The notes under the pieces were generated by a model, which saw only the letters and a program-made list of their open reading frames with translations, made no database searches and had not been told where the DNA came from. A stretch of 35,776 nucleotides of DNA from a virus (taxonomy: Duplodnaviria > Caudoviricetes), in the IMG/VR virus record IMGVR_UViG_3300012952_000051, positions 1 to 35,776 of that record. The stretch is one strand, 5' to 3'. The translations under genes were made by a program, and so were the position numbers. Shown here in pieces: positions 17,890 to 35,776 of the stretch (within the stretch, counting starts at the first letter, position 1; the number at the start of each line of letters is the position of its first letter).

Positions 17890-18103
17890 AGAGGGCGAAC
17901 TAGTCTACGTCCCATCAGAAGTAGTATTAAATAAATATAATTCTTATGACACTAGCGAGTGTAGCTCACAGTGTTGTATAACAGAGAGCCCAGAGTATCT
18001 ATTGGTTGTTGACGGAAATAGAAATAAAGAAGTCGGCGTGTATTTCAATGGGGACACTTGGTTTGTCAATCAGAAAGATGTTTATAATGGTGACAGAGTA
18101 TGA
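17873..18103 (+). CDS. Small beta-rich protein (YKEGELVYV), distant KOW/SH3-like
   Basis: ATG 17873 follows GAGGA. Confidence 0.55.
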   Translation: MKTQYKEGELVYVPSEVVLNKYNSYDTSECSSQCCITESPEYLLVVDGNRNKEVGVYFNGDTWFVNQKDVYNGDRV

Positions 18104-22720: not shown

Positions 22721-22963
22721 ATGAAAAAAGTAGAAAAAGCCAGGCTCCTTTTGTTAGAGACAGCTCTAAAAAAGCATAACCAACTGATGAGTGGTTCAGC
22801 GTTTACCACTGATTTTGCGGCAGCAGAAATTATCAAAAATCTCGTAACGGAAATAAAAATTTTATCACTTGAAAATAAAAAGTATAAAAAAATAATTGAA
22901 GTTCAAAATCTTTATATAAAGAAAAAGGAAAGTGAAATTAAGCGCTTGCAAAATTCAGAATAA
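22721..22963 (+). CDS. Hypothetical coiled-coil protein
   Basis: 80 aa with SD AAGGAG. Confidence 0.55.
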   Translation: MKKVEKARLLLLETALKKHNQLMSGSAFTTDFAAAEIIKNLVTEIKILSLENKKYKKIIEVQNLYIKKKESEIKRLQNSE

Positions 22964-23052
22964 GCTCTGAATATTCTCCACTAAGCGTGCTTTGGTAAGA
23001 AGGCTAAGTGCGGTACTAGTTATCGTTATCCGCCCGATCGGAGGTAAATTTT

Positions 23053-23226
23053 ATGCAATATATGTTAGAGAGAATTGAAGAGTATCAAAACGGTAAATTA
23101 TCTTTTGAAAAAACCGTGATGCTATTTCAGCAGCTAGTAGATACCGGCATGCTCTGGAGAGTTAACGAAAATATACTGAAAGATGTAGACGAGTTGATCG
23201 AGCGTGGATATGTCCTCAAACGTTAA
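23053..23226 (+). CDS. 57-aa hypothetical phage protein (not in the ORF track)
   Basis: MQYMLERIEEYQNGKLSFEKTVMLFQQLVDTGMLW...; SD GGAGGT. Confidence 0.65.
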   Translation: MQYMLERIEEYQNGKLSFEKTVMLFQQLVDTGMLWRVNENILKDVDELIERGYVLKR

Positions 23227-23452
23227 AGTAATATACCCGCCGTTTTTGGGCGCGAAAGGCGATTTGGTAGAAGTTAACCCAATCTATATACCAGAAAATT
23301 TGGTATGGAAATTAAAATATACGCCTCCTGACAGACCTCTTGGAGTAGTTTTGAATTATGAGTCTTTTGCAACATCAGGCGAGATATGGTACGAGATTGG
23401 CTTTCCGGAGGGAAGCTGCTGGGTCGTAGAGACAGCAATAAATTTATGTTAA
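23210..23452 (+). CDS. Small beta-barrel protein, distant member of the GDLV family
   Basis: AKGDLVEV...LGVVL...WYEIGF. Confidence 0.55.
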   Translation: MSSNVKVIYPPFLGAKGDLVEVNPIYIPENLVWKLKYTPPDRPLGVVLNYESFATSGEIWYEIGFPEGSCWVVETAINLC

Positions 23453-23490
23453 AGGGAAGTTAGCTTCCTAATTAAGTATGGGGAATTGAA

Positions 23491-23715
23491 TTGAATTTAT
23501 ATTACGTTTATCAAGACGAGAATACAGGTAAAGGCACTTATCACGCTATGATCGTCGCAGCAGATAATGAAGATGATGCAGCGCTTATCCATCCCGATGG
23601 GGATTGGGATAGAGTTGATACATGGTGCTATTCAGAGAATGATGTTGTTGTAACTTTTATAGGAGACGCGCACGAAGACGTGCTTCCTGGGGTTATATTA
23701 AGCAGCTTCTCATAA
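23491..23715 (+). CDS. Hypothetical acidic phage protein
   Basis: 74 aa; TTG start after GGGGAA. Confidence 0.55.
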   Translation: MNLYYVYQDENTGKGTYHAMIVAADNEDDAALIHPDGDWDRVDTWCYSENDVVVTFIGDAHEDVLPGVILSSFS

Positions 23716-23730
23716 AAGGAAAAACATTTA

Positions 23731-23907
23731 ATGAGAGTTTTCGAGCCAAAAAAACATAACAGCAAAATAGGAGAAGCGCTCACTCAACTATATTTGTTGA
23801 AAAAAGCTTTGGGCGTGCAGAACACTGACACGCTAGAGAAACAGGTAGACAAGATTCGTGAGATCTTAAAAGAACTAAAAGAAATGCTAAACGAAAGAGA
23901 GGAATAA
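23731..23907 (+). CDS. 58-aa coiled-coil protein (not in the ORF track)
   Basis: MRVFEPKKHNSKIGEALTQL...; SD AAGGA; fills the gap between neighbours. Confidence 0.55.
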   Translation: MRVFEPKKHNSKIGEALTQLYLLKKALGVQNTDTLEKQVDKIREILKELKEMLNEREE

Positions 23908-23908
23908 A

Positions 23909-24115
23909 ATGAGCCAGGGACTAGAAGAAGAAGACCTAAGATTTATTGTTGAAGCCGCTAAAGAAAAAGTTAAACTTGATAGAGAGCGTGCTTACTCTAT
24001 GATAGAGGATAGTGAAAGCCCACAAGATATTACCAATCTATTTAATGAAACTTCTAGGCTAGAACGCGCTCTAGACAACATAGAGAGAACCTTAGACAGA
24101 ACTTATTTTGAATGA
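23909..24115 (+). CDS. Hypothetical helical protein
   Basis: 68 aa with SD GAGGA. Confidence 0.55.
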   Translation: MSQGLEEEDLRFIVEAAKEKVKLDRERAYSMIEDSESPQDITNLFNETSRLERALDNIERTLDRTYFE

Positions 24116-24405
24116 TAGGCAACTTAGTTCACTACAATTGCGGTGGAAGCAAATCAATAGCGATCGTGACAGATTTTTTTCGTTATGAGGGTGAGAACAC
24201 ACGAACTTATCGCAACGGCGATATCCTGGTCTCGATAGAGTGGGTCAAAAAATCTGGCGCCATGCCACAGTCCATATCTCCAAATTATTTCCGATACAGT
24301 GACATGAGCATGAACAATGGCCGCGATACTAAATTTTGGCCTGCGGATTGGCATACAAAAAGATGGTATAACTTGAGATATTTTAAAGTTATTTCAAGCG
24401 CTTAG
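24112..24405 (+). CDS. MKVGDLV-family small protein (MIGNLV)
   Basis: Family N-terminus and FKVISSA C-terminus. Confidence 0.6.
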   Translation: MIGNLVHYNCGGSKSIAIVTDFFRYEGENTRTYRNGDILVSIEWVKKSGAMPQSISPNYFRYSDMSMNNGRDTKFWPADWHTKRWYNLRYFKVISSA

Positions 24406-24416
24406 AAATAAAATGT

Positions 24417-24443
24417 TTAATTTATGTTTTTCGTGCTTATAGT
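24417..24443 (+). promoter_or_regulatory. Repeated promoter-like motif, copy 1 (TTAA-N12-GTGCTTATAGT)
   Basis: One of 13 copies; this one has a 12-nt spacer. Confidence 0.65.
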
Positions 24444-24459
24444 TATAATATAAGGAGGC

Positions 24460-24693
24460 ATGAATATGTTTGGCGAAACACAATTTTTAACTGATAGCTT
24501 CAAGACACTCTATCTTGAAGATTATTTCAAACTGAAAGAAGAGGCAGAGCTTCTTAGAATAGAAGCAGAAGAAAATCGGCTAGCCGGTGATGATATAGCA
24601 TATATGGAAAAACTAAAACAGTATGATGTATACAATCTTACAGCAGATACTATGTTGAGCTTGGCTATTAAGACCCCCGTTGCGGAGGCGTGA
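24460..24693 (+). CDS. Hypothetical protein
   Basis: SD AAGGAGG. Confidence 0.6.
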   Translation: MNMFGETQFLTDSFKTLYLEDYFKLKEEAELLRIEAEENRLAGDDIAYMEKLKQYDVYNLTADTMLSLAIKTPVAEA

Positions 24694-25046
24694 TGAACTA
24701 TTCAGAAGAAGAAATAGAGATGGCATTTAATTATTTCGCCTCAGAAGCACAGAGAATTGTGTCACAATACATGGACACACACTTTCCAACGTTGCCCAAA
24801 GAGCATATTGAAGTAGATGATAACGGGCACGTATATTGGAAGCTTTTTAAAGTCTCTGAGCCGGATCACTGTGGGGGCATTTCTAGACAGATCTACGCTT
24901 TTGTCAGAAAGAGAGACGGCGCTATTTTTAAAGCCGCATCCTACCGCGCGCCATATACCAAGGGTAAGAGCGCCATTAGGGGCTACGTAACCGATGAATG
25001 GGCGTCTAGCCTCATCACAGCACACGGGGTGATATATGCGAGGTGA
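24690..25046 (+). CDS. Conserved phage hypothetical protein (FVRKRDGAIFKAASYRAP)
   Basis: G-x-I-x-K-A-A-S-x-x-A-P motif recalled from phage early proteins; SD GGAGG. Confidence 0.65.
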   Translation: MMNYSEEEIEMAFNYFASEAQRIVSQYMDTHFPTLPKEHIEVDDNGHVYWKLFKVSEPDHCGGISRQIYAFVRKRDGAIFKAASYRAPYTKGKSAIRGYVTDEWASSLITAHGVIYAR

Positions 25047-25243
25047 GAGTTGGCTCCCTAGTTTCGTATGTAGGACATTGGATCCCAGGGATATTTCCCG
25101 ATGATCGAACTAGAGAACCATCTTACGGCATCATAATAGAAATTGATCATTGGTCGCAAGGCACAAACGTTTGTGTCTATTGGACAGAAGCCGAAGAGAC
25201 GTACTGGCACGAAGAAACAGAATTGTTGTTGTTAAATGAATAG
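25043..25243 (+). CDS. MKVGDLV-family small protein
   Basis: MRVGSLV...GIII...VYW...ELLLLNE. Confidence 0.7.
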   Translation: MRVGSLVSYVGHWIPGIFPDDRTREPSYGIIIEIDHWSQGTNVCVYWTEAEETYWHEETELLLLNE

Positions 25244-25478
25244 AAAAATACCAAGAAATTTAAAAGTAGGCGATCTTGTTATATGGGAAGATGATTCGTT
25301 AGGAATACTTGCCAAACGGTTTGACATGTACGCCAATTCCTCTAGGCCAACTTGGCCAACTTGGTGTTGGAGAATCGAGTTTCCTAATGGTGCCCCTGCA
25401 AATTATAATGAGCGCTATGGCGAGGGCGAGATAAATTTAAAGAACAGGAATAAGATAAAAGAGATTATTTCTTGTTAA
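25236..25478 (+). CDS. MKVGDLV-family small protein
   Basis: NLKVGDLVIW. Confidence 0.7.
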   Translation: MNRKIPRNLKVGDLVIWEDDSLGILAKRFDMYANSSRPTWPTWCWRIEFPNGAPANYNERYGEGEINLKNRNKIKEIISC

Positions 25479-25502
25479 CTTTACGGCACTGGTGCTTATA
25501 GT
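25475..25502 (+). promoter_or_regulatory. Repeated promoter-like motif, copy 2
   Basis: TTAA-N13-GTGCTTATAGT; its TAA is the upstream stop codon. Confidence 0.7.
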
Positions 25503-25523
25503 TTATTCATCAGGAGATATTAA

Positions 25524-25676
25524 ATGAAAATTGGCGATTATGTTGTCTGTCAAGGCAAGGAAGGCAAAATTATAAGATTTCAACCAAAGACAAGAGATCT
25601 TATTGTAAAAGATGGCGAAGGAAATATACACACGTTCTCACAGTTTGCTGCGGAGTTGAAGAATGAAACCCGGTGA
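25524..25676 (+). CDS. MKVGDLV-family small protein, 50 aa (not in the ORF track)
   Basis: MKIGDYVVCQGKEGKII...ELKNETR; SD AGGAG. Confidence 0.7.
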   Translation: MKIGDYVVCQGKEGKIIRFQPKTRDLIVKDGEGNIHTFSQFAAELKNETR

Positions 25677-25857
25677 TCTAGTGAGGGTTAACCCTTCTAT
25701 GCGCGACACACGTCGACGAGGCGATGCAGTAGGCGTGATTGTTGAATACCATCCCGAAGAAGCATATCTTCACGAGTCAGTCCTCGTGCGCTGGGGCGAC
25801 GGCAAACAAGAGGTAGAATTTCCGCATTGGCTAGAGGTTGTTAATGCAGCCGGGTGA
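25663..25857 (+). CDS. MKVGDLV-family small protein
   Basis: MKPGDLVRV...VRWGDG...WLEVVNAAG. Confidence 0.75.
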   Translation: MKPGDLVRVNPSMRDTRRRGDAVGVIVEYHPEEAYLHESVLVRWGDGKQEVEFPHWLEVVNAAG

Positions 25858-26017
25858 TTTGGTGAGACATAAGACCGTTACCTCTTACGGGTTTGGTTTG
25901 GTAACTCACGTTGCTCATGGCACAAAAGCTGTTAAAGTATTGTGGTCTGTAAACAAAAGCAAGACACCGACCGCCGAAATTAGTGATATGTTAGAGATTG
26001 TAAGCGAGATTAAATAA
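25844..26017 (+). CDS. MKVGDLV-family small protein, 57 aa (not in the ORF track)
   Basis: MQPGDLVRHK...GFGLV...VLW...MLEIVSEIK. Confidence 0.75.
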   Translation: MQPGDLVRHKTVTSYGFGLVTHVAHGTKAVKVLWSVNKSKTPTAEISDMLEIVSEIK

Positions 26018-26019
26018 TT

Positions 26020-26163
26020 ATGTGGGTTTTTTACCATAAGATACCTGTCGTTGCCGCCGATTTTCCGAGCGACTTTACGGTGTTTGTTATAGTTGGTTTC
26101 ATTACCGGCGTTGTTGTTCTGGCGCCATCTTTTTTGGAGCGCAAAAGAAATGAAACCCGGTGA
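26020..26163 (+). CDS. 47-aa single-TM protein (not in the ORF track)
   Basis: MWVFYHKIPVVAADFPSDFTVFVIVGFITGVVVLAPSFLERKRNETR; ends in the same 14-nt junction. Confidence 0.5.
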   Translation: MWVFYHKIPVVAADFPSDFTVFVIVGFITGVVVLAPSFLERKRNETR

Positions 26164-26332
26164 GCTGGTAACTTTATCTGCATATGGACAGAAGTTAAAA
26201 ATGTTCACAAGCCTAAGAAACAAAGTCGGCTTGATTATTTCTGTCATGAAAGATGGTTCCTGCCATGTTCGCTGGCAAGGGTTTAGCACTAATCAATATA
26301 TGGAAAGAAAAGACATAAAGAAAGCTAAATAA
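26150..26332 (+). CDS. MKVGDLV-family small protein
   Basis: MKPGELVTLSAYG...VGLII...VRW; start reassigned to ATG 26150. Confidence 0.7.
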   Translation: MKPGELVTLSAYGQKLKMFTSLRNKVGLIISVMKDGSCHVRWQGFSTNQYMERKDIKKAK

Positions 26333-26353
26333 AAGTAATATTATGCTTATAAT
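26326..26353 (+). promoter_or_regulatory. Repeated promoter-like motif, copy 3
   Basis: TAAA-N13-ATGCTTATAAT. Confidence 0.6.
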
Positions 26354-26382
26354 AAAGAAAAGGAGGTTGGGCATTATGTCCG

Positions 26383-26739
26383 GTGTATTACGAAGCTCGT
26401 GATAGAGCATTGAATAATGGTAGGGTTTATCACCTCGCAGCTATTTTGAAACGACGAAACAAAGTCGTTAAGATTGGCGAGAACACGTATAAGACCCATC
26501 CTAGATTCAAAAGAACATACCCAGATGGTACAACAGGCAGCCACATGCATGCAGAGATGAACGTCCTGCGCTTCGCGAAGCCTGGAGATACCATAGAGGT
26601 TATTAGATTTCTAAAGACTGGTGGTCATGCCATGGCCAAGCCTTGCAGATACTGTATGCAACACATTCGAGAGGCTGGTATTAAAGAGGTAAGATATACC
26701 AATCCAGATGGAGAGTGGGAGTGCATGAAGGTAACGTGA
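26383..26739 (+). CDS. Zinc-dependent cytidine/dCMP deaminase-superfamily protein
   Basis: HAE and KPCRYC zinc motifs; AGIKEVRYT. Confidence 0.85.
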   Translation: MYYEARDRALNNGRVYHLAAILKRRNKVVKIGENTYKTHPRFKRTYPDGTTGSHMHAEMNVLRFAKPGDTIEVIRFLKTGGHAMAKPCRYCMQHIREAGIKEVRYTNPDGEWECMKVT

Positions 26740-26951
26740 GGGTAGGCGATTTAATTCTGTATGAGAATATGGATTCTAAATTAATTTATGGAATTGTTGC
26801 GGAAGCAGCTAGTTGGAGAAAAGAATATAAAGGCCCAGCCGTCCGCGTGTGTTGGTTTGACGACGCATCAATGACATACGAGTCTGTAGAAGCTATACTC
26901 AGCGATGAGGATATCGATCGCTACATAGGAGTCGTAAGTGGAAATCGGTGA
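26736..26951 (+). CDS. MKVGDLV-family small protein
   Basis: GTG start, (M)RVGDLILY...YGIV...VCWFDD. Confidence 0.7.
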   Translation: MRVGDLILYENMDSKLIYGIVAEAASWRKEYKGPAVRVCWFDDASMTYESVEAILSDEDIDRYIGVVSGNR

Positions 26952-27165
26952 TCTAGTAAAATGCAATTGGCAACCCGGTTCATCACACATTGAAGATGAT
27001 TGCGCTGTGCCTATGAAGTTTATAATCAAAGGCGAGATAGGAATTGTTATTGGCAAGAGAGAGCAGCACTATATAGGCAGCAGCTATAACGTGGTTCTAT
27101 TTCCAAAGTTTGGTTATAAACATACGTTAAGCGACCACACTCTTGACTTATTGAGCCAAATTTAG
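26938..27165 (+). CDS. MKVGDLV-family small protein
   Basis: MEIGDLVKC...IGIVI. Confidence 0.7.
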   Translation: MEIGDLVKCNWQPGSSHIEDDCAVPMKFIIKGEIGIVIGKREQHYIGSSYNVVLFPKFGYKHTLSDHTLDLLSQI

Positions 27166-27171
27166 TATGAT
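27143..27171 (+). promoter_or_regulatory. Sigma70-type promoter TTGACT-17-TATGAT; probably gives a leaderless uvsE mRNA
   Basis: ATG 27178 lies 7 nt after the -10, with no SD. Confidence 0.65.
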
Positions 27172-27177
27172 GGTATT

Positions 27178-28122
27178 ATGAACAACAAAACAAACTTAGG
27201 CTATGCTTGCATCAACATGCAGCTTTCTAGCCTACCAAAATCACAACGCGTAACTACGAACCGCACTATGATCAAGCGCACATTCAAACAGCGCGGATTA
27301 CCTTACGCTTCCGAACTGGCCCTTGCCAACTGTCGTGACTTGCTGACAATCCTAAAGTGGAATGAGCAGAACAATATCCGCTTCTTTCGCATCTCGTCAG
27401 ATATATTTCCATGGGCATCAGAGTATAAATTGTCTGACCTGCCCGACTATGATGACATTTGTGATGCCTTGCAAGATGCTGGCGATTATATTGAAGAGCA
27501 TGGCCATCGCATCACATCGCATCCTGGCCCTTACAACAAGCTGACATCGCCTCGCGAGCAAGTTGTATTAAACACTATCCGCGATCTTGATATCCATGGC
27601 GAGCTATTCGACATGCTTGGTTTATCGCGCACACCATACAACAAACTCAACATTCACGTTGGCGCACACTACAATGACAAGCCTATGGCATTGGGCAATT
27701 TCTGCCGCAATTTTCATCGCCTGTCTGAAGCTGCCCGTGCTCGCCTGACTGTCGAGAACGACGACAAGGCTAGCCTCTACTCGACCAAAGAGTTGTATGA
27801 TAGTGTCTACAATGAGATTGGTATCCCTATCGTCCACGACGTACATCACCACAAGTTTTGCACTGGCGATATCGACGACGAAGAAGCTATGTTGCTAGCA
27901 GCCATGACATGGGGCGATGTCAAGCCAGTTATCCACTACTCACAGTCGCGCTCAATTGAACACGATGACCCCAAGATCAGAGCTAATGCTCATAGCGATT
28001 CTTATTGGGAGCCGGTAGATACTTATGGTCTAGACATTGACGTAATGTTGGAGTGCAAACACAAAGAGCTTGGCTTGTTCAAGATGAGAGAATTACTAAG
28101 CGCCCGTAGCTCAGCTGGATAG
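27178..28122 (+). CDS. uvsE: UV DNA damage endonuclease
   Basis: [55 protein letters not shown]. Confidence 0.94.
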
Positions 28123-28176
28123 AGCAACGGCCTTCTAAGCCGTAGGTCACAGGTTCAAATCCTGTCGGGCGTGCCA
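28100..28176 (+). tRNA. tRNA-Arg (UCU)
   Basis: Cloverleaf; anticodon loop CTTCTAA; GGTTCAAAT T-loop; encoded CCA. Confidence 0.93.
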
Positions 28177-28180
28177 ATAC

Positions 28181-28489
28181 TTAAAAAAGATAACCGAGGT
28201 AAAGATATATTTTGCAAAGCAAGTAGCAGTGCCAAGCAGCTAGAGCACCGTAGAAGTAAACAATCCAATTTAAGTATTTAGATTGGTGCCTTGCTAACAA
28301 GAATATTGCAACAGCAAAAAGAACAACCTTAATAAATATAAAGAACCATGGGCTTATCTCAATCGCGTAAGCCATCAGAGGATTTACCTCGATCCCACCG
28401 TTGCTCAAGATAAGCAAAGTGGATCCAGCATCAAACAAGTTCAACAACATGGCGGTCATAGCTAGTATCTTTGTTTTCTTGCTCATCAT
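28181..28489 (-). CDS. DUF5658-like small membrane protein
   Basis: LNLFDAGSTL...GGIEVNPLM plus TM helices; the only convincing minus-strand gene. Confidence 0.75.
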   Translation of the reverse strand: MMSKKTKILAMTAMLLNLFDAGSTLLILSNGGIEVNPLMAYAIEISPWFFIFIKVVLFAVAIFLLARHQSKYLNWIVYFYGALAAWHCYLLCKIYLYLGYLF

Positions 28490-28521
28490 AAATAAATATT
28501 AGGATAGTGGTATTTTTTGCA

Positions 28522-28549
28522 TTAACTTAACACATATCGTGCTTATAAT
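28522..28549 (+). promoter_or_regulatory. Repeated promoter-like motif, copy 4 (upstream of the tRNA cluster)
   Basis: TTAA-N13-GTGCTTATAAT. Confidence 0.7.
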
Positions 28550-28561
28550 ATAAACATACAT

Positions 28562-28647
28562 GGCCTTGTGGCGGAATTGGTAGACGCAGCAGACTCAAAA
28601 TCTGCCGTCCTTTGGGCGTGAGGGTTCGAGTCCCTCCGAGGCCACCA
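28562..28647 (+). tRNA. tRNA-Leu (CAA)
   Basis: Class II cloverleaf with long variable arm; GCAGA-CTCAAAA-TCTGC; encoded CCA. Confidence 0.93.
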
Positions 28648-28654
28648 CACATAC

Positions 28655-28731
28655 GGACCTTTAGCTCAGTTGGTTAGAGCCACCCGCTCATAACGGGTTA
28701 GTCCTCGGTTCGAGTCCGAGAGGGTCCACCA
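28655..28731 (+). tRNA. tRNA with CAU anticodon, probably Ile2 (lysidine-type) rather than Met
   Basis: CCCG-CTCATAA-CGGG; acceptor GGACCTT/AGGGTCC with A73 resembles bacterial tRNA-Ile2; lacks initiator features. Confidence 0.85.
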
Positions 28732-28736
28732 AATAA

Positions 28737-28812
28737 TGCACAGCGGCACTAATGGAGTGCCTCCCGTACCGCAACCCGGTGATAGCAGGTTCGACTCCTG
28801 TCTGTGCAGCCA
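28737..28812 (+). tRNA. Atypical tRNA-like gene with a degenerate anticodon arm
   Basis: Acceptor TGCACAG/CTGTGCA+G+CCA, D-stem GCAC/GTGC and T-arm GCAGG-TTCGACT-CCTGT are intact; the anticodon stem does not pair canonically. Confidence 0.7.
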
Positions 28813-28833
28813 AACATTTAATGGAGAAATAAA

Positions 28834-28980
28834 ATGGAACAGATCATTTATGATTCGCTTGTAAGAGCACAAGAACACTTTGATGATATCGAGACACCAG
28901 AGCAGTTGGCAAAATATATTGCCGATGAATTAAAAAGAGCCATCGCAGAACAATTGATGCAACAGCTTAACCATCTCTAA
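28834..28980 (+). CDS. 48-aa helical protein (not in the ORF track)
   Basis: MEQIIYDSLVRAQEHFDD...; SD GGAG. Confidence 0.6.
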   Translation: MEQIIYDSLVRAQEHFDDIETPEQLAKYIADELKRAIAEQLMQQLNHL

Positions 28981-28994
28981 TTCGTGCTTATACT
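28967..28994 (+). promoter_or_regulatory. Repeated promoter-like motif, copy 5
   Basis: TTAA-N13-GTGCTTATACT, directly abutting ATG 28995. Confidence 0.65.
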
Positions 28995-29198
28995 ATGAAA
29001 GTAGGCGATTTAGTTCGTTTGTCCGCTCATGGTGAGAGACTATCGTGGTATCAGGATTGTCGAGGCAAACTCGGCTTAATAATTCGTGAGTGTGATATGT
29101 GGACAGGCAAAGAATATAAGCACTGCTTTTGGGTTAATTTTATTAATGGCCCACAAACGATAAAAGCATATCGCTCGGATCTTAAACACGCAAAATGA
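28995..29198 (+). CDS. MKVGDLV-family small protein
   Basis: MKVGDLVRLSAHG...LGLII. Confidence 0.75.
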   Translation: MKVGDLVRLSAHGERLSWYQDCRGKLGLIIRECDMWTGKEYKHCFWVNFINGPQTIKAYRSDLKHAK

Positions 29199-29395
29199 TT
29201 AAAGTTGGAGATTTAGTTAGGCCCGCCCCCGGCTGTGAATATATAGCAGAGCTTGGAACTGGTAGAGGCACTTATCGAGTACGCTACGGCATAGTGTGTG
29301 GGTGGGTTGAAAGCTCCCATATGTGGGAAGTTATTTGGAACGACGGACGCGAAACTAGCTGGTGGAACGAGAGAGAACTTAGGATTTTAACATGA
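29195..29395 (+). CDS. MKVGDLV-family small protein
   Basis: MIKVGDLVRP...YGIV...VIWNDG...ELRIL. Confidence 0.75.
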   Translation: MIKVGDLVRPAPGCEYIAELGTGRGTYRVRYGIVCGWVESSHMWEVIWNDGRETSWWNERELRILT

Positions 29396-29577
29396 AAGTC
29401 GGAGATTTGGTAACATTAGCGCCCAAGGTGATGCTTCGTCGTGAGCAGAACTTCGCTGGGTTCATCATAGGTTTTGATGAAGATAACGATCCGGTTGTCC
29501 AGTGGTTCCTGAAGGGAAATGAGATTTTTGTAGAATCAGAGTATAGAAGCCAGATAAAGGTAATTAGCGAAGCCTAA
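29392..29577 (+). CDS. MKVGDLV-family small protein
   Basis: MKVGDLVTL...VQWF...IKVISEA. Confidence 0.75.
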   Translation: MKVGDLVTLAPKVMLRREQNFAGFIIGFDEDNDPVVQWFLKGNEIFVESEYRSQIKVISEA

Positions 29578-29583
29578 CATTAT

Positions 29584-29660
29584 ACGCCCATAGCTCAGTA
29601 GGTTAGAGCGCCATTCTTATAAAGTGGAAGTCACGGGTTCAAGTCCCGTTGGGCGTACCA
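29584..29660 (+). tRNA. tRNA-Ile (UAU)
   Basis: Acceptor ACGCCCA/TGGGCGT; CCATT-CTTATAA-AGTGG; A73 plus CCA. Confidence 0.9.
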
Positions 29661-29680
29661 AAAACAAGGAGAATAAAATT

Positions 29681-29803
29681 ATGAAGAAATTATTTAGCAG
29701 TCCGCTGACCAATTCGGGTGGCCTCACCCTGGTAGGGTTTTTTTGGGCTATAGTTACAGCGATCTCAGCGTTTCTGTTGCCAATCTTTCTTTTCGTTGAG
29801 TGA
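29681..29803 (+). CDS. 40-aa single-TM protein (not in the ORF track)
   Basis: MKKLFSSPLTNSGGLTLVGFFWAIVTAISAFLLPIFLFVE; SD AAGGAG. Confidence 0.6.
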   Translation: MKKLFSSPLTNSGGLTLVGFFWAIVTAISAFLLPIFLFVE

Positions 29804-29985
29804 TCTCTACGATGGTACCAGGCGATTTAGTGAAATTTAAGAAGCCAAACACTAGAGAAATTGGACAATATTATTTGGTGTTGGAGATCGATGGTCCCGG
29901 TTGGGTTAGGCTCGACGATGGAGAGAGGAATCTATTTCACCATATGAAAGATCTGACGATTGTCAGCACTGGTCATGAAAAATGA
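29800..29985 (+). CDS. MKVGDLV-family small protein
   Basis: MVPGDLVKF...DLTIVS. Confidence 0.7.
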   Translation: MISTMVPGDLVKFKKPNTREIGQYYLVLEIDGPGWVRLDDGERNLFHHMKDLTIVSTGHEK

Positions 29986-30209
29986 TTCCGATGGAATATC
30001 TTAGGACCGATGCAAAGAGTCCAACTGGCCTTAATCCAGGCGCTAAGTCTGGCGAGAGCACGAACAAGAATAATTTTATTAAGCATAAGTCCTCGAAATC
30101 AAAGAGGAAATTAGATATTGGCCCAGCAGTTGTTCTTCATATTGGAGAAAGTGCTAAACTTGAGCCGATGCGTGCTTATGATTTTCTTGGAAGACCCAAG
30201 GAGATGTGA
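29982..30209 (+). CDS. Hypothetical basic protein
   Basis: 75 aa; ATGA overlap. Confidence 0.45.
   Translation: MIPMEYLRTDAKSPTGLNPGAKSGESTNKNNFIKHKSSKSKRKLDIGPAVVLHIGESAKLEPMRAYDFLGRPKEM
30155..30182 (+). promoter_or_regulatory. Repeated promoter-like motif, copy 6
   Basis: TAAA-N13-GTGCTTATGAT. Confidence 0.6.
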
Positions 30210-30769
30210 TGAGATTCTGCAATTTTATATTCAAACCCAAACAGAAAGAGATCGCCGAGAAAGTATTAAAAGGTCTTTGTGAAGGATGGCTTGGTTGGAA
30301 CGACGCTGGTCTTTATTGGGGATTTGATAACCGTGAACTTCCAGAAGGATATATTAAATTCTACGGCGAGGCGGATCCTTACAGCGGAGCTTCTGAAATG
30401 TCGAACGCCACCGAGATTTGCCATAGTGATGAGCCCGTCCGCGCATCTGATCTCACAGAGCATATGATGATCGCTCTTGACGAAGAAGGCTTCTTCGATG
30501 ATCCAAAGATCCATGAATGGATGTCATATGAAGATGCACAAGAGGACGAGAGAGTTTCTGGATGGGACAGCAACAACCCCAAATACTATAGTTTTTTTGA
30601 AAGAGAGCTTGGCGAAGTTATTATGTGCTTAGCCGCTAGCTCCTCCCGTGTCATGTCTTTCTATGAGGATTCCGTTTGGGTAGCAGACAAAGATGAGGCC
30701 GGGAATACTCAAACAAAGTCCGTTCCTCTGGTCGAAAATATCTTGAACATGCCAATCGATCACTCTTAA
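30206..30769 (+). CDS. Hypothetical acidic protein
   Basis: 187 aa with SD AAGGAG. Confidence 0.65.
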   Translation: MMRFCNFIFKPKQKEIAEKVLKGLCEGWLGWNDAGLYWGFDNRELPEGYIKFYGEADPYSGASEMSNATEICHSDEPVRASDLTEHMMIALDEEGFFDDPKIHEWMSYEDAQEDERVSGWDSNNPKYYSFFERELGEVIMCLAASSSRVMSFYEDSVWVADKDEAGNTQTKSVPLVENILNMPIDHS

Positions 30770-30793
30770 TTTAGCACAATCTGTGCTTATAGT
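30766..30793 (+). promoter_or_regulatory. Repeated promoter-like motif, copy 7
   Basis: TTAA-N13-GTGCTTATAGT; ATG 7 nt downstream. Confidence 0.7.
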
Positions 30794-30799
30794 TTACTT

Positions 30800-31015
30800 A
30801 TGAAATCACCAGAACTCAAAGTAGGCGATCTCGTCCAGTGGACGCTGGATGGAGATCTTGGATTCGTAACCAAGGTTGATCTCGCGGAGCTGGACGCTAC
30901 TGATAAGCCACCAGCCGATCGCGAGCCTTATTTTATTCAGTGGATTTACGAGCCCGGATCCTCTGGCTGGCATGGCGCGCACGAAGATTCTTTGAAATTG
31001 CTTAATCCTGCTTAA
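30800..31015 (+). CDS. MKVGDLV-family small protein
   Basis: ELKVGDLVQW...LGFV...IQW...SLKLLN. Confidence 0.75.
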   Translation: MKSPELKVGDLVQWTLDGDLGFVTKVDLAELDATDKPPADREPYFIQWIYEPGSSGWHGAHEDSLKLLNPA

Positions 31016-31029
31016 ACTGTGCTTATAGT
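31002..31029 (+). promoter_or_regulatory. Repeated promoter-like motif, copy 8
   Basis: TTAA-N13-GTGCTTATAGT. Confidence 0.7.
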
Positions 31030-31054
31030 CTTACTATAGAAAGGAGAAACAAAA

Positions 31055-31783
31055 ATGTCCCGTTGTTCATATTGTTATACAGAAGGTCACAATCGCCGCA
31101 CCTGTCCACAACTGACGAAAAGGCTGGAGCAATCGGCTGCTTCCGGTAGTTCCTATTCCCAATCCATGCTCGACGCTCGCGGCAAAGGCAGTGGCAGAAA
31201 GAAAGACACTCGTCGCTGTTCTTTCTGTGGTACTTATGGCCATGATCGTCGGACTTGCGATAAGCTAAACACTTTCCTCAAGGAAATCACGAGACGAGAT
31301 GTCATCGCCCGTGATATCATTAGAGAGCGGATGATTGATAGCGGTTTTGGCCCCGGCGCTTTGGTAGCATTTAGTGTTAGTGATTGGGATTACGAAAACA
31401 ACAAAACCAAAATGACAGATTACACTGGAATCATATCGAAAATCAAATGGAACGATATTGGACGAACGACGTTCGATAGCCGTCACCAGCTAGCTTTGGT
31501 AAAGTTTTTTGTCCAACGCGAAGGCGCAACGGTTCCTGCCGAACGCTGGCTCAGCCTACCCTTTGATGTGTTCGCCAAAGATCTCAAAGAGGTACCTGAT
31601 CGTCCTAGTTGGTCTGATGTTCCGGTAACTGTTTCTAAGGTCGATGTAGCTATCCCAGACTCTTACGATGATCATCGAGCCATTTTGAAACACAACAAGA
31701 TTGCATACAGAGAGCAAGATTCATATACTTGGGAGTACCGAGAGGTTATGAACGAGCTAGAGAACCAAGAGCAACAAAAGTAA
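31055..31783 (+). CDS. Protein with two CCHC zinc knuckles and a probable beta-barrel domain
   Basis: CSYCYTEGHNRRTC and CSFCGTYGHDRRTC, then FGPGALV...TGII; SD AAGGAG. Confidence 0.8.
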   Translation: MSRCSYCYTEGHNRRTCPQLTKRLEQSAASGSSYSQSMLDARGKGSGRKKDTRRCSFCGTYGHDRRTCDKLNTFLKEITRRDVIARDIIRERMIDSGFGPGALVAFSVSDWDYENNKTKMTDYTGIISKIKWNDIGRTTFDSRHQLALVKFFVQREGATVPAERWLSLPFDVFAKDLKEVPDRPSWSDVPVTVSKVDVAIPDSYDDHRAILKHNKIAYREQDSYTWEYREVMNELENQEQQK

Positions 31784-31983
31784 TGAAAGTTGGCGACTTG
31801 GTAAAAGTAATACACCCTACCTTTGGTGTGCCCTTCGGGGCACTAGCTATAATTTCGAGGGTTATGCGCTCTAACTTCGATGAGTTTGATATATATGATC
31901 TAGTGGTAGTAGGAACGAAAGAGCAAACTAGAAGGCAAGGCCGCGATCTAGAACTAGTCGCATCAGCGAATATTTCTTCTTAA
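31783..31983 (+). CDS. MKVGDLV-family small protein
   Basis: MKVGDLVKV...DLELVAS; TAATG coupling. Confidence 0.75.
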   Translation: MKVGDLVKVIHPTFGVPFGALAIISRVMRSNFDEFDIYDLVVVGTKEQTRRQGRDLELVASANISS

Positions 31984-32007
31984 CATATGCCTACTCGTGC
32001 TTATGAT
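31980..32007 (+). promoter_or_regulatory. Repeated promoter-like motif, copy 9
   Basis: TTAA-N13-GTGCTTATGAT; ATG 7 nt downstream. Confidence 0.7.
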
Positions 32008-32013
32008 TAGTAT

Positions 32014-32220
32014 ATGATTAAGGGACCATTCAAAACAGGCGATTTAGTAAAGTTTCCCGATACCGGATTCCTCGCTACGATTGTAAATATTGAAACCGAG
32101 TACAACACCACCAACGCGACGTTGTGGGTATCTGGCGATTACACTGGTCCGAACCCAACTTTCATGAGCTTAAATATGCTGCGCCGTCGAGCGGTTGTTA
32201 TTTCTAAGGCTAACAAATGA
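32014..32220 (+). CDS. MKVGDLV-family small protein
   Basis: FKTGDLVKF. Confidence 0.7.
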   Translation: MIKGPFKTGDLVKFPDTGFLATIVNIETEYNTTNATLWVSGDYTGPNPTFMSLNMLRRRAVVISKANK

Positions 32221-32411
32221 AAGTCGGAGATCTAGTAAGAATCAAGCGCCCCTGCCACATGACCGGAGACGCGGTAGGCTTGTGTGTATCACATGAATGG
32301 CACAAATATAGTATTAAATCTAAGATTTGGATCGTTGAGATCCTTAATCCCGCTCAAGGCACCCACCGCTATCTTGAGGAAGAACTGGAGTTAGTCAGTG
32401 AAAGCCGGTGA
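32217..32411 (+). CDS. MKVGDLV-family small protein
   Basis: MKVGDLVRI...ELELVSESR. Confidence 0.75.
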   Translation: MKVGDLVRIKRPCHMTGDAVGLCVSHEWHKYSIKSKIWIVEILNPAQGTHRYLEEELELVSESR

Positions 32412-32580
32412 TTTAGTAAAGCGTAAACTTAATGGCAAATATGAATACGCCATTATAGTTCAAATCTCGTCACATAAAGAAAACAATCATAGATCACCAT
32501 TCGCTCTTAAAGTGTGGACACGCTTAGGTCACGGATGTTGGGATGCTAGAAAATGTGAGTTGGCCAATGAAAGTCGGTAG
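32398..32580 (+). CDS. MKVGDLV-family small protein
   Basis: MKAGDLVK...CELANESR. Confidence 0.75.
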   Translation: MKAGDLVKRKLNGKYEYAIIVQISSHKENNHRSPFALKVWTRLGHGCWDARKCELANESR

Positions 32581-32818
32581 CCTAGTAAAATATGTCGGTT
32601 CAGCAGCTATGTATCGCGACCGAGTTGGTATTGTTGCGAAACTCTACGGGTTCATCGATGAACGAATCGACTCCGCGCTCGTTCACTTCGCTGGCCTTGA
32701 AGGCAAGGGCCGCGACGAAGTTGTGGATGCCTCCAATGTCCGCGCAAACCGAGGCAAGGGCGACGGACTTCATCCCATGGCGTTTGATGAGCTAAAGATC
32801 ATTGGTGAAAATCAATAA
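32567..32818 (+). CDS. MKVGDLV-family small protein
   Basis: MKVGSLVKY...VGIV...ELKIIGE; start ATG 32567. Confidence 0.75.
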   Translation: MKVGSLVKYVGSAAMYRDRVGIVAKLYGFIDERIDSALVHFAGLEGKGRDEVVDASNVRANRGKGDGLHPMAFDELKIIGENQ

Positions 32819-32825
32819 TAAAGCA

Positions 32826-32853
32826 TTAATTCTGACGGATCCGTGCTTATAGT
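32826..32853 (+). promoter_or_regulatory. Repeated promoter-like motif, copy 10
   Basis: TTAA-N13-GTGCTTATAGT; ATG 7 nt downstream. Confidence 0.7.
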
Positions 32854-32859
32854 TATATC

Positions 32860-33057
32860 ATGTTCAAGATAGGAAACCTAGTAAGACTTACCCGCCGTCA
32901 AGGCTGGAGAGAAGAAACTGACCCTGGCATCGGACTTGTGCTAGCTATCCGTTCGCACGATTATTTGCTTGATGAAATCAAAGTCCGCTGGCGAGATGGA
33001 AAAATAGAGTGGACAAACTCAGGTTTGCTTAGGATAATCTCCAGAGGAGTTAGTTAA
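32860..33057 (+). CDS. MKVGDLV-family small protein
   Basis: MFKIGNLVRL...IGLV...VRWRDG...LRIIS. Confidence 0.75.
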   Translation: MFKIGNLVRLTRRQGWREETDPGIGLVLAIRSHDYLLDEIKVRWRDGKIEWTNSGLLRIISRGVS

Positions 33058-33278
33058 TGAAAGTTGGTGATTTGGTAAGAATTATGGACGGCGGGAGCGG
33101 CCTGGTCCACGGCGGCGAGATTCCTCCTGATGCCATTGGCATCGTGGTTGCGGAGCCTTCCACAGCGTGCTTCCAGAAGGGCGGCGCGCTACCGTCGATG
33201 TGGGTTCAGTGGCCCGGACGCGGAGATTGGGACTCGATGGAGATCGAGGACTTGGAGGTTATCAGTGAAAGTCGGTGA
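33057..33278 (+). CDS. MKVGDLV-family small protein
   Basis: MKVGDLVRI...VQW...DLEVISESR. Confidence 0.75.
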   Translation: MKVGDLVRIMDGGSGLVHGGEIPPDAIGIVVAEPSTACFQKGGALPSMWVQWPGRGDWDSMEIEDLEVISESR

Positions 33279-33444
33279 TTTAGTTGTGCAGCTAGGCTGG
33301 GAAGCAGACGGTGTAGGTATCGTAACCAGAGTAGCCGCCGAGTCTGCCCTCATTGAACCGCCCGTGCTGGTTACAGTGCAGTGGCCAAACGGCGAGGACG
33401 ATATGTATCGGAGCGAGTTGAAGGTTATCAGTGAAAGTCGGTGA
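33265..33444 (+). CDS. MKVGDLV-family small protein
   Basis: GTG start after GGAGG; (M)KVGDLVVQ...VQWPNG...ELKVISESR. Confidence 0.75.
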   Translation: MKVGDLVVQLGWEADGVGIVTRVAAESALIEPPVLVTVQWPNGEDDMYRSELKVISESR

Positions 33445-33613
33445 TTTAGTAAAACATTCAGACATCCCCTCGCTAGGTCTTGGCCTCGTGACGGAAGATT
33501 TTGGTGTACACGTATGTGTACAGTGGCTATACGAAGCTGGCGACGACCGCAAGGATCCCGGTCCAACGCTGGAAACAATCAGTATGCTGGAGATTGTAAA
33601 TGAAAGTAGGTGA
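33431..33613 (+). CDS. MKVGDLV-family small protein
   Basis: MKVGDLVKH...VQW...MLEIVNESR. Confidence 0.75.
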   Translation: MKVGDLVKHSDIPSLGLGLVTEDFGVHVCVQWLYEAGDDRKDPGPTLETISMLEIVNESR

Positions 33614-33830
33614 TTTGGTTAAACTTCTGAATGATCCAGAAGTTCACAGAAATAACGGAGAGATTCCCCCTGATGCTATTGGTATCGTGGTCGAAGAGGA
33701 ATTGGCCGACCACGCCAGAGGTTCTCACGGCCCGCTGTGGTCGGTGTGGGTTAATTGGTTTGGTCGATGGGATTGGGATTCAATGTTCGTCGAGGATCTG
33801 AAGATCATCAGTGAAGCGCGAGGTTCATGA
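33600..33830 (+). CDS. MKVGDLV-family small protein, close paralogue of 33057
   Basis: Shares GEIPPDAIGIV and DWDSM..EDL with 33057. Confidence 0.75.
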   Translation: MKVGDLVKLLNDPEVHRNNGEIPPDAIGIVVEEELADHARGSHGPLWSVWVNWFGRWDWDSMFVEDLKIISEARGS

Positions 33831-33934
33831 TGGAGCACCTCTTTAACTGTCACGGCGAGTGGGCGCTGTTTGGGTCCGTCGCAGGCTCCGCGTTTTATAT
33901 TAAACACTGGATCAAAGCCAAGTGGAATAAATGA
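33827..33934 (+). CDS. 35-aa small protein (not in the ORF track)
   Basis: MMEHLFNCHGEWALFGSVAGSAFYIKHWIKAKWNK; ATGA overlaps at both ends. Confidence 0.5.
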   Translation: MMEHLFNCHGEWALFGSVAGSAFYIKHWIKAKWNK

Positions 33935-34125
33935 AAGTCGGTGATTTAGTAAAGCCTGGAGATGAACACGGGCTAAAAAACCGACCCTACAGAAAGTCTG
34001 GTGTTGTCATTAACCTACTGCCCGCAAAGCCAGGATGGAATGAGGCTTGTGTGGTTTTTTGGAACGATGGAGATTATGAGTTGGAAGTCCCGGCATGGTT
34101 GGAGATTATAAGTGCAGCCCGGTGA
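33931..34125 (+). CDS. MKVGDLV-family small protein
   Basis: MKVGDLVKP...VFWNDG...WLEIISAAR. Confidence 0.75.
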   Translation: MKVGDLVKPGDEHGLKNRPYRKSGVVINLLPAKPGWNEACVVFWNDGDYELEVPAWLEIISAAR

Positions 34126-34279
34126 TTTGGTAAGATTTAAGCACGATGGCCAGCTAATGTTGATCACTGCTATCCAGCGCCCCGGCTGCTTCCATGGTGT
34201 ATTTGTGTCTGGCAGACGCCACGGCCAAGGTGTAACATCGTATGAGAGTTTGATGGAGAAAATAAATGAAAGTCGGTGA
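34112..34279 (+). CDS. MKVGDLV-family small protein, 55 aa (not in the ORF track)
   Basis: GTG start; (M)QPGDLVRFK...MEKINESR. Confidence 0.7.
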   Translation: MQPGDLVRFKHDGQLMLITAIQRPGCFHGVFVSGRRHGQGVTSYESLMEKINESR

Positions 34280-34436
34280 TCTAGTAAAAGCGCCCCATTG
34301 GGGAGTCGATCAGGTAGCTGTTGTTATTAGTACCAAGCGTCTGGAACATACCGGAATTGTTAAAGTTTTTGGTTCCTTCGGTTGGGAGCTTGATCAAGAG
34401 TCACGACATCTTGAGATTATTTCCGAGGCCACTTAA
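34266..34436 (+). CDS. MKVGDLV-family small protein, 56 aa (not in the ORF track)
   Basis: MKVGDLVKAPHW...HLEIISEAT. Confidence 0.75.
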   Translation: MKVGDLVKAPHWGVDQVAVVISTKRLEHTGIVKVFGSFGWELDQESRHLEIISEAT

Positions 34437-34460
34437 CAAATGTGTTCCCATGCTTACTAT
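34433..34460 (+). promoter_or_regulatory. Repeated promoter-like motif, copy 11
   Basis: TTAA-N13-ATGCTTACTAT. Confidence 0.65.
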
Positions 34461-34482
34461 CTTTATGTAAGTACGGAGGCCC

Positions 34483-34731
34483 ATGATGGCGTTTAACAAT
34501 ATTCACACTGTGAAGGTCGGTGATCTTGTACGACGAGATCGCGGCTTCGGAAATGGAGAGCTGTTCATGGTGGTTGATGTCCAGGGCGAGCCCTGCCCGC
34601 TCAGATCTCACGAGATGACCCTGAAGCTATGGGAAGTTACAGAGCCTCCAGGCCACCACCATCATGCTCCGGCTAGCTTTTATATGATTGTCGGAGGAAA
34701 ATATGAATCAGATCTCTACGGGTCCAACTAG
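34483..34731 (+). CDS. MKVGDLV-family small protein
   Basis: VKVGDLVRR; SD GGAGG. Confidence 0.7.
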   Translation: MMAFNNIHTVKVGDLVRRDRGFGNGELFMVVDVQGEPCPLRSHEMTLKLWEVTEPPGHHHHAPASFYMIVGGKYESDLYGSN

Positions 34732-34734
34732 CAT

Positions 34735-35079
34735 ATGAAACACAAGCAAGCCATGTGCGGGTATTGTGCCAAGCGAGGGCACACCAGACGATCGTGCGCG
34801 TTGAGAAAGCGGCACGAAAAGATGTTTGACACCGCAATCTTTCCGCAAATCTTCAAGCCTGGAGATCTGGTGGTCACTGCGTTAGCTCCACCCCGGTACA
34901 AAGACGAGCACCCACGAGGATGGGGGACAGAACCAGAAGGCACGCTAGCGATGGTTACTAGCGGACCCATTGAACATTATCATTCGTGGGGTGGACTCTA
35001 CGATATTGTTTACGTTTCAGGAGATAGCACCGGTACGACAAGTCAGATTTGTGCTGATTTTGTTAGACCGACAACTTAA
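34735..35079 (+). CDS. CCHC zinc knuckle fused to an MKVGDLV-family domain
   Basis: CGYCAKRGHTRRSC followed by FKPGDLVV. Confidence 0.75.
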   Translation: MKHKQAMCGYCAKRGHTRRSCALRKRHEKMFDTAIFPQIFKPGDLVVTALAPPRYKDEHPRGWGTEPEGTLAMVTSGPIEHYHSWGGLYDIVYVSGDSTGTTSQICADFVRPTT

Positions 35080-35103
35080 TTCACATACTTTAGTGCTTAT
35101 ATT
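35076..35103 (+). promoter_or_regulatory. Repeated promoter-like motif, copy 12 (upstream of tRNA-Lys)
   Basis: TTAA-N13-GTGCTTATATT. Confidence 0.7.
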
Positions 35104-35119
35104 TTAAGTATCAGATTAT

Positions 35120-35195
35120 GCCTCTTTAGCTCAGTTGGTAGAGCACGCGGCTTTTAACCGCTAGGTCGTAGGTTCGATCCCTACAGGGGGCACCA
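35120..35195 (+). tRNA. tRNA-Lys (UUU)
   Basis: Cloverleaf; GCGG-CTTTTAA-CCGC; encoded CCA. Confidence 0.92.
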
Positions 35196-35210
35196 AACAC
35201 AGGAGATCCA

Positions 35211-35606
35211 GTGGGATACCGTTCAGAAGTAGTTTTGGCTGTAACAAAGCAAGCCGCGCCATACTTCATGGCGATGCTAGCCAAAAGTCCAGATACCAAA
35301 CGATTGTGTGAAACCGCTGACGAGTTTACCCCCGACTTCGATGAAGAAGGCGGCTGGTTAGTTCGCTGGAGCAATATCAAGTGGTACGAAGGATATCCAG
35401 AAGTTGATGTAATCAATGATTTTGTTGAGGCGATGAGTTCAGATGATCTAGCTCAATATGGAGAACTGGAGTCTAGTTCAATCGAATGGTCTGAACACTT
35501 CATTTTCGTGAGAGTTGGTGAGGAATGTGATGATATCCGTCAAGAAGGTTACGGACCATGGCCAATCTTCCCACAAACTTCAATTCATATTGGCAAAGAT
35601 ACTTAA
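35211..35606 (+). CDS. Conserved phage hypothetical protein (MGYRSEV...WSNIKWYEGYPEV...RVGEE)
   Basis: 131 aa; GTG start after AGGAG. Confidence 0.7.
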   Translation: MGYRSEVVLAVTKQAAPYFMAMLAKSPDTKRLCETADEFTPDFDEEGGWLVRWSNIKWYEGYPEVDVINDFVEAMSSDDLAQYGELESSSIEWSEHFIFVRVGEECDDIRQEGYGPWPIFPQTSIHIGKDT

Positions 35607-35630
35607 TTAGCACCTTAGCGTGCTTACTAT
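35603..35630 (+). promoter_or_regulatory. Repeated promoter-like motif, copy 13
   Basis: TTAA-N13-GTGCTTACTAT. Confidence 0.7.
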
Positions 35631-35651
35631 TCAAACATGAGAGGTAAAAAC

Positions 35652-35776
35652 ATGAAACCGTGGACCGTCATTCTTAAAGAGTGCCCAGAATCCTTTACGC
35701 CCAGCTATACCCGCGAAGCGTTCCTTCCATATAACAGCACAGATGCATGGGATCGAGCGTGTAACCTTTATGGTAA
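35652..35776 (+). CDS. Hypothetical protein, 3'-truncated by the window edge
   Basis: ATG after GAGGT; open to the end of the window; in-frame upstream ATG at 35637. Confidence 0.5.
   Translation, partial: MKPWTVILKECPESFTPSYTREAFLPYNSTDAWDRACNLYG

Follow-up and report, generated by a model that had tools for sequence, protein, structure and literature searches.

An array of predicted SH3-like mini-genes in an uncultured marine phage represents a coding-joint form of cassette shuffling

In the hyperplastic regions of T4-type phages, PeSL cassettes are described as non-essential genes flanked by short repeated signals, with sigma70-like early promoters, to which insertions, deletions and replacements map (Arbiol et al., 2010, PMC2839356; also PMC4122927); the PeSLs of these accounts are intergenic promoter-plus-terminator elements placed around unrelated ORFans. 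Phage accessory regions usually hold assortments of orphan genes that are unrelated to one another. In contrast, we describe a locus in which one scaffold fills 14–39 slots per genome, an array of small genes in record IMGVR_UViG_3300012952_000051, the whole 35,776 nucleotides (nt) of which are referred to as the window. We call a gene of this SH3/KOW-like mini-gene array a member. As in PeSL-type shuffling, indels and replacements bounded by a short repeat were found in an accessory region, and in this case the repeat is a 14-nt joint at which neighbouring genes overlap. The array is real and represents a coding-joint form of cassette shuffling undescribed in the literature searched, where no description of the mini-gene family was found. 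The SH3 fold alone is unremarkable, since it is reported as the commonest small fold among bacterial-virus clusters (PMC12487901) and is predicted twice in a phage counter-defence protein, Nip of Phi3T (PMC11984713).

A preliminary description of the window had proposed about 29 paralogous open reading frames (ORFs) with fixed ends. All 29 starts indeed open + strand ORFs of 50–114 amino acids (aa), and a first strand of the G[DSNE][LYFM][VI] type is present in 29/29. In six of them (starts 25236, 29800, 30800, 32014, 34483 and 34735) this strand is preceded by an N-terminal extension, which in 34735 is a zinc-knuckle-like segment. A six-frame motif scan of the window gave 40 matches on the + strand vs. 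2 on the − strand. The array features are given below with their strand in brackets; the core test is a leave-one-out profile comparison with both shared ends removed, and relatives are cited by labels such as L045 or G004.

24112..24405 (+): member, 97 aa, long-insert outlier, predicted SH3/Tudor-like barrel; core test not passed
25043..25243 (+): member, 66 aa, orthologue in L049
25236..25478 (+): member, 80 aa; core test not passed
25524..25676 (+): weak member, 50 aa, ends in the 14-nt joint
25663..25857 (+): member, 64 aa
25844..26017 (+): member, 57 aa
26020..26163 (+): unrelated hydrophobic cargo ORF, 47 aa, ends in the same 14-nt joint
26150..26332 (+): member, 60 aa
26736..26951 (+): member, 71 aa
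26938..27165 (+): member, 75 aa, orthologues in L117 and L133
28995..29198 (+): member, 67 aa
29195..29395 (+): member, 66 aa
29392..29577 (+): member, 61 aa, acidic loop-2 motif common to 7 further genes of the set
29800..29985 (+): member, 61 aa, alternative start 29812
30800..31015 (+): member, 71 aa, likely leaderless start
31783..31983 (+): member, 66 aa; core test not passed
32014..32220 (+): member, 68 aa, likely leaderless start
32217..32411 (+): member, 64 aa
32398..32580 (+): member, 60 aa
32567..32818 (+): member, 83 aa, long third loop, orthologues in L045 and L060
32860..33057 (+): member, 65 aa, likely leaderless start
33057..33278 (+): member, 73 aa, recent paralogue of 33600
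33265..33444 (+): member, 59 aa, AlphaFold2 five-strand barrel, predicted local distance difference test (pLDDT) 85.7
33431..33613 (+): member, 60 aa, slot taken by a different member in L045
33600..33830 (+): member, 76 aa, recent paralogue of 33057
33931..34125 (+): member, 64 aa
34112..34279 (+): member, 55 aa
34266..34436 (+): member, 56 aa
34483..34731 (+): member, 82 aa, alternative start 34510; core test not passed
34735..35079 (+): zinc-knuckle-like N-terminus fused to a member domain, 114 aa
23204..23452 (+): extra weak candidate member, profile 11.4 bits
25647..34285 (+): eleven dispersed 14-nt overlap joints, at starts 25663, 25844, 26150, 26938, 32398, 32567, 33265, 33431, 33600, 34112 and 34266
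23971..35630 (+): fourteen dispersed sigma70-like promoter motifs, TGCT near 23988, 24433, 25492, 26343, 28539, 28984, 30172, 30783, 31019, 31997, 32843, 34450, 35093 and 35620

The 29 genes are paralogous, and their homology reaches past the shared ends. In the core test 19/29 members beat 100 shuffles (p ≤ 0.05), while 10/29, the outlier 24112 among them, failed. A profile built from the window set recovered 254 domain matches scoring 12 bits or more, spread over 81 sources, while reversed sequence gave 0. The columns of the family profile include an internal Gly (82%) and an aromatic residue (95%), and the first and last strands are its best-conserved parts. None of the 29 members reaches a Pfam cut-off and no Pfam family claims them; KOW (PF00467) was matched by 0/29 at E ≤ 0.1 and by 0/148 members at E ≤ 0.01. 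Profiles of defence systems in PADLOC, a library without phage anti-defence proteins, also matched 0/148 members.

What makes these genes exchangeable cassettes, and was missed in the preliminary description, is the joint between them. Adjacent pairs overlap by exactly 14 nt in 72/131 cases in a set of loci anchored on the UvsE gene, and in 545/753 cases in a larger set biased by selection on the joint pattern; the window holds 10 such member-member pairs and one cargo pair. No intergenic space is left at these sites. The upstream L-E-V codons form a GGAGGT-like ribosome-binding site inside the last strand, the S/N-E codons hold the next start, and the upstream stop lies inside the downstream Gly-Asp codons, so the joint doubles as last strand, ribosome-binding site, stop codon and next start. 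Overlapped starts encode their Gly as GGT in 70/72 cases vs. 95/236 for free starts (background 35%). As free starts keep the Gly with near-background GGT use, the first strand is under selection as protein. A joint-type tail was present in 45/72 overlapped genes vs. 32/236 others, and the C-terminal "ESR" tail mostly results from reading the start of the following gene in a different frame. The proposed fixed C-terminal end is not supported as a purely structural strand, since this tail occurs in unrelated genes as well. The joint captures unrelated cargo genes too: 64 ORFs beyond the profile end in it, 25 of them in ESR (some are missed members, others unrelated), and a GIY-YIG gene occurs in one form with an MKVGD start and in another that lacks it.

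Between related phages, whole genes delimited by this joint are gained, lost and swapped. In a 10-kb stretch of G004 vs. G009 (96% identical), 3/4 indels of at least 50 nt were single genes of 145–181 nt, joint-bounded, while two more distant pairs gave 11 and 7 alignment gaps without clean repeats. Between loci, non-redundant homology ended within 25 nt of a joint in 107/172 cases vs. 28.4 expected, a figure inflated by the conservation of the joint on both sides. The slot of 33431 in the window is filled by another member in L045, and 28/44 close-orthologue groups have more than one downstream family. A RecA-like gene was found in 5/5 relatives tested. Tyrosine integrase (PF00589) was detected in 0/5 near-complete relatives (control 14/14), and reverse transcriptase (RVT_1, PF00078) was likewise detected in 0/5 (control 3/14; one profile only). 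These results suggest homology-based exchange at the joint. An integron cassette array was rejected on the lack of an IntI-type tyrosine integrase in the five relatives; a diversity-generating retroelement was rejected on the RVT_1 result and because no non-synonymous excess was seen, loop dN/dS (ratio of non-synonymous to synonymous rates) being 0.19–0.29.

To this last point, the loops had been called hypervariable, which as ongoing diversifying selection is not supported by our comparison of loops and strands. With one pair taken per cluster, dN/dS was 0.13–0.15 in strands, 0.23–0.29 in loops and 0.08–0.10 in long neighbouring genes; random pairs by nucleotide identity from 109 groups gave 0.12 for strands and 0.19 for loops, and both samples favour conserved pairs. 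Values for whole members were 0.17–0.22, orthologue dS was 0.35–0.9, and pN exceeded pS in only 4/59 and 0/70 pairs. The loops are looser than the strands yet conserved, under purifying selection between orthologues. Mosaic genes were also observed. One gene, L045:16152, combines a 33600-type loop 1 with a 33057-type loop 2 around shared strand-2 DNA. At the protein level, 318 pairs match at ≥80% identity in one segment, and 80 of them fall to ≤30% in another (35 cluster pairs); in 12/35 cluster pairs (best pair each) codon identity of the shared segment was at least 0.75, vs. 0.35 at saturation. At the nucleotide level, 57 mosaic pairs were found in 25/107 related groups; a strict three-way mosaic test was passed by just 1/951 genes. 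Loop exchange within genes is therefore likely, with a weaker case than gene turnover and with local fast divergence as its alternative. Diversity arises through whole-gene turnover at the joint and, less firmly, through loop replacement within genes.

The mini-gene expansion is lineage-wide. A UvsE search returned 80 viral loci on contigs of up to 192 kb, of which 46 carry members, all on the UvsE strand. All seven relatives at least 90% complete (180–192 kb) gave 14–27 matches and three partial ones gave 1, 2 and 14; these are lower bounds, as the profile found 39 ORFs in 20 kb of G005. The window together with 241 loci, 141 of them picked by joint pattern and hence a biased set, yielded 1,223 distinct genes; these form 756 core clusters (547 singletons), and there were 1,720 matches vs. 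2 in reversed sequence. The Chao1 estimate is ~2,170 clusters in the sample, and 17/27 clustered window members lack an orthologue there. The profile matched 1,754 representatives (50% identity), some of which are unrelated SH3-repeat proteins.

Structure prediction was performed for two members, 33265 and the outlier 24112. Both gave SH3-like barrels with five strands and a 3-10 turn before the last strand (2/29 members), the first by AlphaFold2 with the pLDDT given above, the second built from its own orthologues and showing the same topology. The two predicted folds are thus not heterogeneous and, together with the core homology, support the earlier proposal that one small SH3/KOW-like scaffold had been expanded with diverse loops. 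Foldseek placed eS4 KOW domains in the top rows (template modelling score, TM, about 0.7), and the 50 listed VIA rows are SH3-like small beta-barrels. Matches include NusG, Spt5 KOW, UvrD/PcrA Tudor and CdnL, tied with PsaE, NdhS, R67 DHFR and others. Among 748 cluster representatives net charge ranges from −8 to +6 (median 0), the isoelectric point (pI) is above 9 in 29% and below 5.5 in 36%, and 6 appear membrane-bound. Loops 1 and 2 vary two- to threefold in span. Tudor/chromo-like methyl-lysine readers are described as having a multi-residue aromatic cage (PMC5906684); no such cage was seen in the profile, where one column is 95% aromatic and the next best 37%, the columns not being mapped onto a Tudor structure. 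Nor does the profile hold a conserved basic surface column besides the joint-encoded Lys and position 18. Given the charge spread, the scarcity of membrane-like members, the variable loops and the single aromatic column, varied cytoplasmic binders fit better than a common nucleic-acid binder or methyl-lysine reader. An acidic hairpin motif, G/S-F-D-x-D-x-D-P, occurs in loop 2 of 8/1,223 otherwise differing members (29392–29577 in the window, L036:5466, L101, L112, L147, L164, L176 and L236), with codons saturated in the pairs checked; it is a candidate shared binding motif.

We also searched for expression signals. A promoter-like motif (−35 TTAA.., 16-nt spacer, TGCT, then a TATAAT-like −10) occurs 14 times in 22901–35776 (shuffle mean 1.4, maximum 5) and 3 times in the other 22.9 kb; its −35 often overlaps the previous stop codon. 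A generic sigma70 scan alone gave 35 vs. 24.8, and terminators showed no excess (15 vs. 10.4 ± 4.6). Among 489 train-leading genes of relatives, the position of a −10-like hexamer has its peak 6 nt ahead of the start (24 genes), which suggests leaderless messages. From these motifs we infer that the array is probably expressed early in infection.

The window is a fragment of an uncultured marine phage. Array-bearing sequencing runs are marine, seawater or aquatic metagenomes (20 rows from 14 studies; 5 rows with at least half of the words). Contigs from independent seawater runs span the array in the same gene order, e.g. with 47 substitutions and 0 gaps over 31040–32870, which excludes an assembly artefact. 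The left 22 kb code for DnaE, GroEL, ClpP, dUTPase, IMPDH, cysteine synthase, peptide deformylase, PurA and an amidase, and the right part for UvsE and five tRNAs (Arg-TCT, Leu-CAA, Met-CAT, Ile-TAT, Lys-TTT), which are interspersed with the array at 28100–35195. No structural genes were found within the window itself and there is no close cultured phage (DnaE identity at most 32%). One relative, G004, is a T4-type myovirus by its genes for gp23 capsid, T4 portal, T4-type terminase and tail sheath, and also codes for a RecA/UvsX-like protein. GC content rises from 40% in the core region to 47–48% in the array, which also encloses a 118-aa cytidine/dCMP-deaminase-like gene (26383–26739) and, between tRNAs, a 102-aa hydrophobic ORF on the minus strand (28181–28489), similar to a DUF5658 gene in the G004 array. 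The 242-aa ORF at 31055–31783 has two zinc-knuckle-like motifs and an internal G-A-L-V strand. As a relative, L024:13050, reaches 12.3 bits with the family profile, this ORF may resemble 34735 in joining a zinc knuckle to a diverged barrel. In the core region, an ORF at 17825–18103 has a G-E-L-V first strand, and similar genes in L042 and L059 score on the profile; it is possibly a dispersed, older member. A pair of genes for a MoxR-type AAA ATPase and a DUF2201 vWA/metallopeptidase adjoins the array in L089:15503-18148 and L094:5045-7459. Family arrays also lie in phage-like stretches of public metagenome-assembled genomes labelled WOR-3, Legionellales and Flavobacteriales (L248, L251, L253 [GTDB record CP070664.1] and L255), likely as binning contamination.

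We read the locus as an exchangeable-cassette expansion of predicted SH3-like mini-genes in a likely early-expressed accessory region, whose products probably bind varied host proteins; we put this at roughly 55%, while the architecture by itself, leaving host-protein binding aside, is in our judgement very probably right. On the cassette reading, many short promoters would let the sigma70 RNA polymerase of the host transcribe the trains immediately after entry, and overlapping genes would be translated in a coupled manner. Recombination at joints, through the RecA-like protein of the phage or a different homology-based route, would add, delete and reorder genes, and recombination at conserved strand codons inside genes would sometimes replace a single loop. 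Each barrel would display its own set of three loops around the conserved aromatic residue and bind one host protein surface, with defence, transcription or translation machinery as candidate targets, and selection would act mainly on which cassettes a phage carries. A bolder version, which we regard as possible but tentative, is a two-level combinatorial binder library: thousands of SH3-like mini-proteins across a marine phage clade, re-dealt by recombination at the dual-coding joint between genes and at conserved strands inside them, would each disable or divert a host protein of its own, without any recombinase or mutator dedicated to the task.

Other readings place the function, or its absence, elsewhere. 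Members could mimic host Tudor/KOW adaptors (CarD, the RNA-polymerase-interaction domains of Mfd and UvrD, NusG) and converge on the transcription/translation machinery, as the adaptor folds among the structural matches and the sigma70-like early-type promoters would suggest. One of 148 members, none of the window's 29, scores on CarD_TRCF_RID (E 1.1e-5) and PcrA_UvrD_tudor (8.6e-4); this gene, L070:5680-5868, is a candidate RNA-polymerase binder. Yet the other 147 match neither profile, the fold matches tie with other barrels such as PsaE, and hundreds of distinct loop sets are more than one machine would seem to need, which leaves this mimicry unlikely. Comparably improbable is that the array exists mostly as a by-product: the joint, self-coupling and recombinogenic, would ratchet up copy number, with most copies of little benefit and kept folded only to avoid harm. 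A member dN/dS about twice that of core genes (0.17–0.22 vs. 0.08–0.10), 547/756 clusters seen once, frequent loss and the capture of unrelated genes fit such a ratchet; conserved loops between orthologues with diverged synonymous sites and the rarity of pN > pS do not, and direct repeats should favour deletion although 7/7 near-complete genomes keep at least 14 copies.

A role as KOW-like nucleic-acid binders coating or regulating phage or host RNA/DNA agrees with the best Foldseek rows (eS4 KOW) and with the basic 29% of representatives. Against a general role of this kind stand the acidic 36%, the median net charge of 0, the missing basic surface column and the failure of any member to reach Pfam KOW, and we consider it distinctly unlikely. 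Still less probable is that coupled barrels co-assemble via conserved edge strands into mixed oligomers (Sm-like or R67-like) as the functional unit. Coupling would give equal amounts, the first and last strands are the most conserved, and R67 DHFR is among fold and atlas neighbours; end conservation is, however, largely explained by the nucleotide joint, and neighbours change freely (28/44 groups). Finally, the shared element could be a translation-start DNA motif only, in front of otherwise unrelated ORFs. The joint is indeed a real nucleotide-level motif that grafts MKVGD starts onto unrelated genes, and ten cores fail the leave-one-out test. This account is contradicted for most members by the 19 cores that pass without their ends, the synonymous variation of free starts, the internal Gly and aromatic columns, and the common topology of 24112; similarity extends beyond the first seven residues. 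It stands for a few weak members, e.g. 25524, and is extremely improbable for the array as a whole.

Since the exchange site is carried by the reading frame itself, an inserted gene arrives with its translation signals, and the array allows a direct count of genes gained and lost and of loops exchanged in phages. If the members do bind host proteins, they would amount to a natural collection of 60-residue inhibitors, numbering hundreds to thousands, and a screen of them would chart the defence and host-takeover targets of marine bacteria.

Compared with known systems, the array is like the zinc-ribbon expansion of Bacillus phage G (about 35 copies) in being a lineage-specific expansion of a small domain in a large phage; the fold differs, and cassette joint and turnover do not feature in what that account describes (Iyer et al., 2021, PMC7824862). 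Nip, a precedent for the binder reading, resembles the members by predicted fold and is described as a 279-aa single-copy multidomain protein (PMC11984713). Relative to SH3-like small beta-barrels in general (KOW of NusG/Spt5, eS4 and uL24; Tudor of 53BP1, PHF19 and UvrD; PsaE/NdhS; Mib-Herc2; YorP), the 29 members lie below Pfam cut-offs, lack a multi-residue aromatic cage and stand alone in 14–39 copies. The genes of the SPO1 host-takeover module, unlike those of the array, are not known to be related to one another or to share a scaffold or joint. The likeness lies in a dense small-gene cluster that is inferred, in the accounts of SPO1, to act early on host machinery (PMC6873191, PMC10531801). 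In the gp38 adhesin of T-even phages, hypervariable segments are reported to be interchanged between conserved motifs, as is likely in our mosaic genes, but each phage has a single gp38 gene, which serves receptor binding by the virion (Trojet et al., 2011, PMC3157838), while the array consists of paralogues by the dozen that stand alone, are likely cytoplasmic and have an unrelated fold. In contrast to PeSLs, no terminator excess was seen, the repeat of the array codes in two frames and overlaps stop and start, and its cargo is mostly one paralogous fold.

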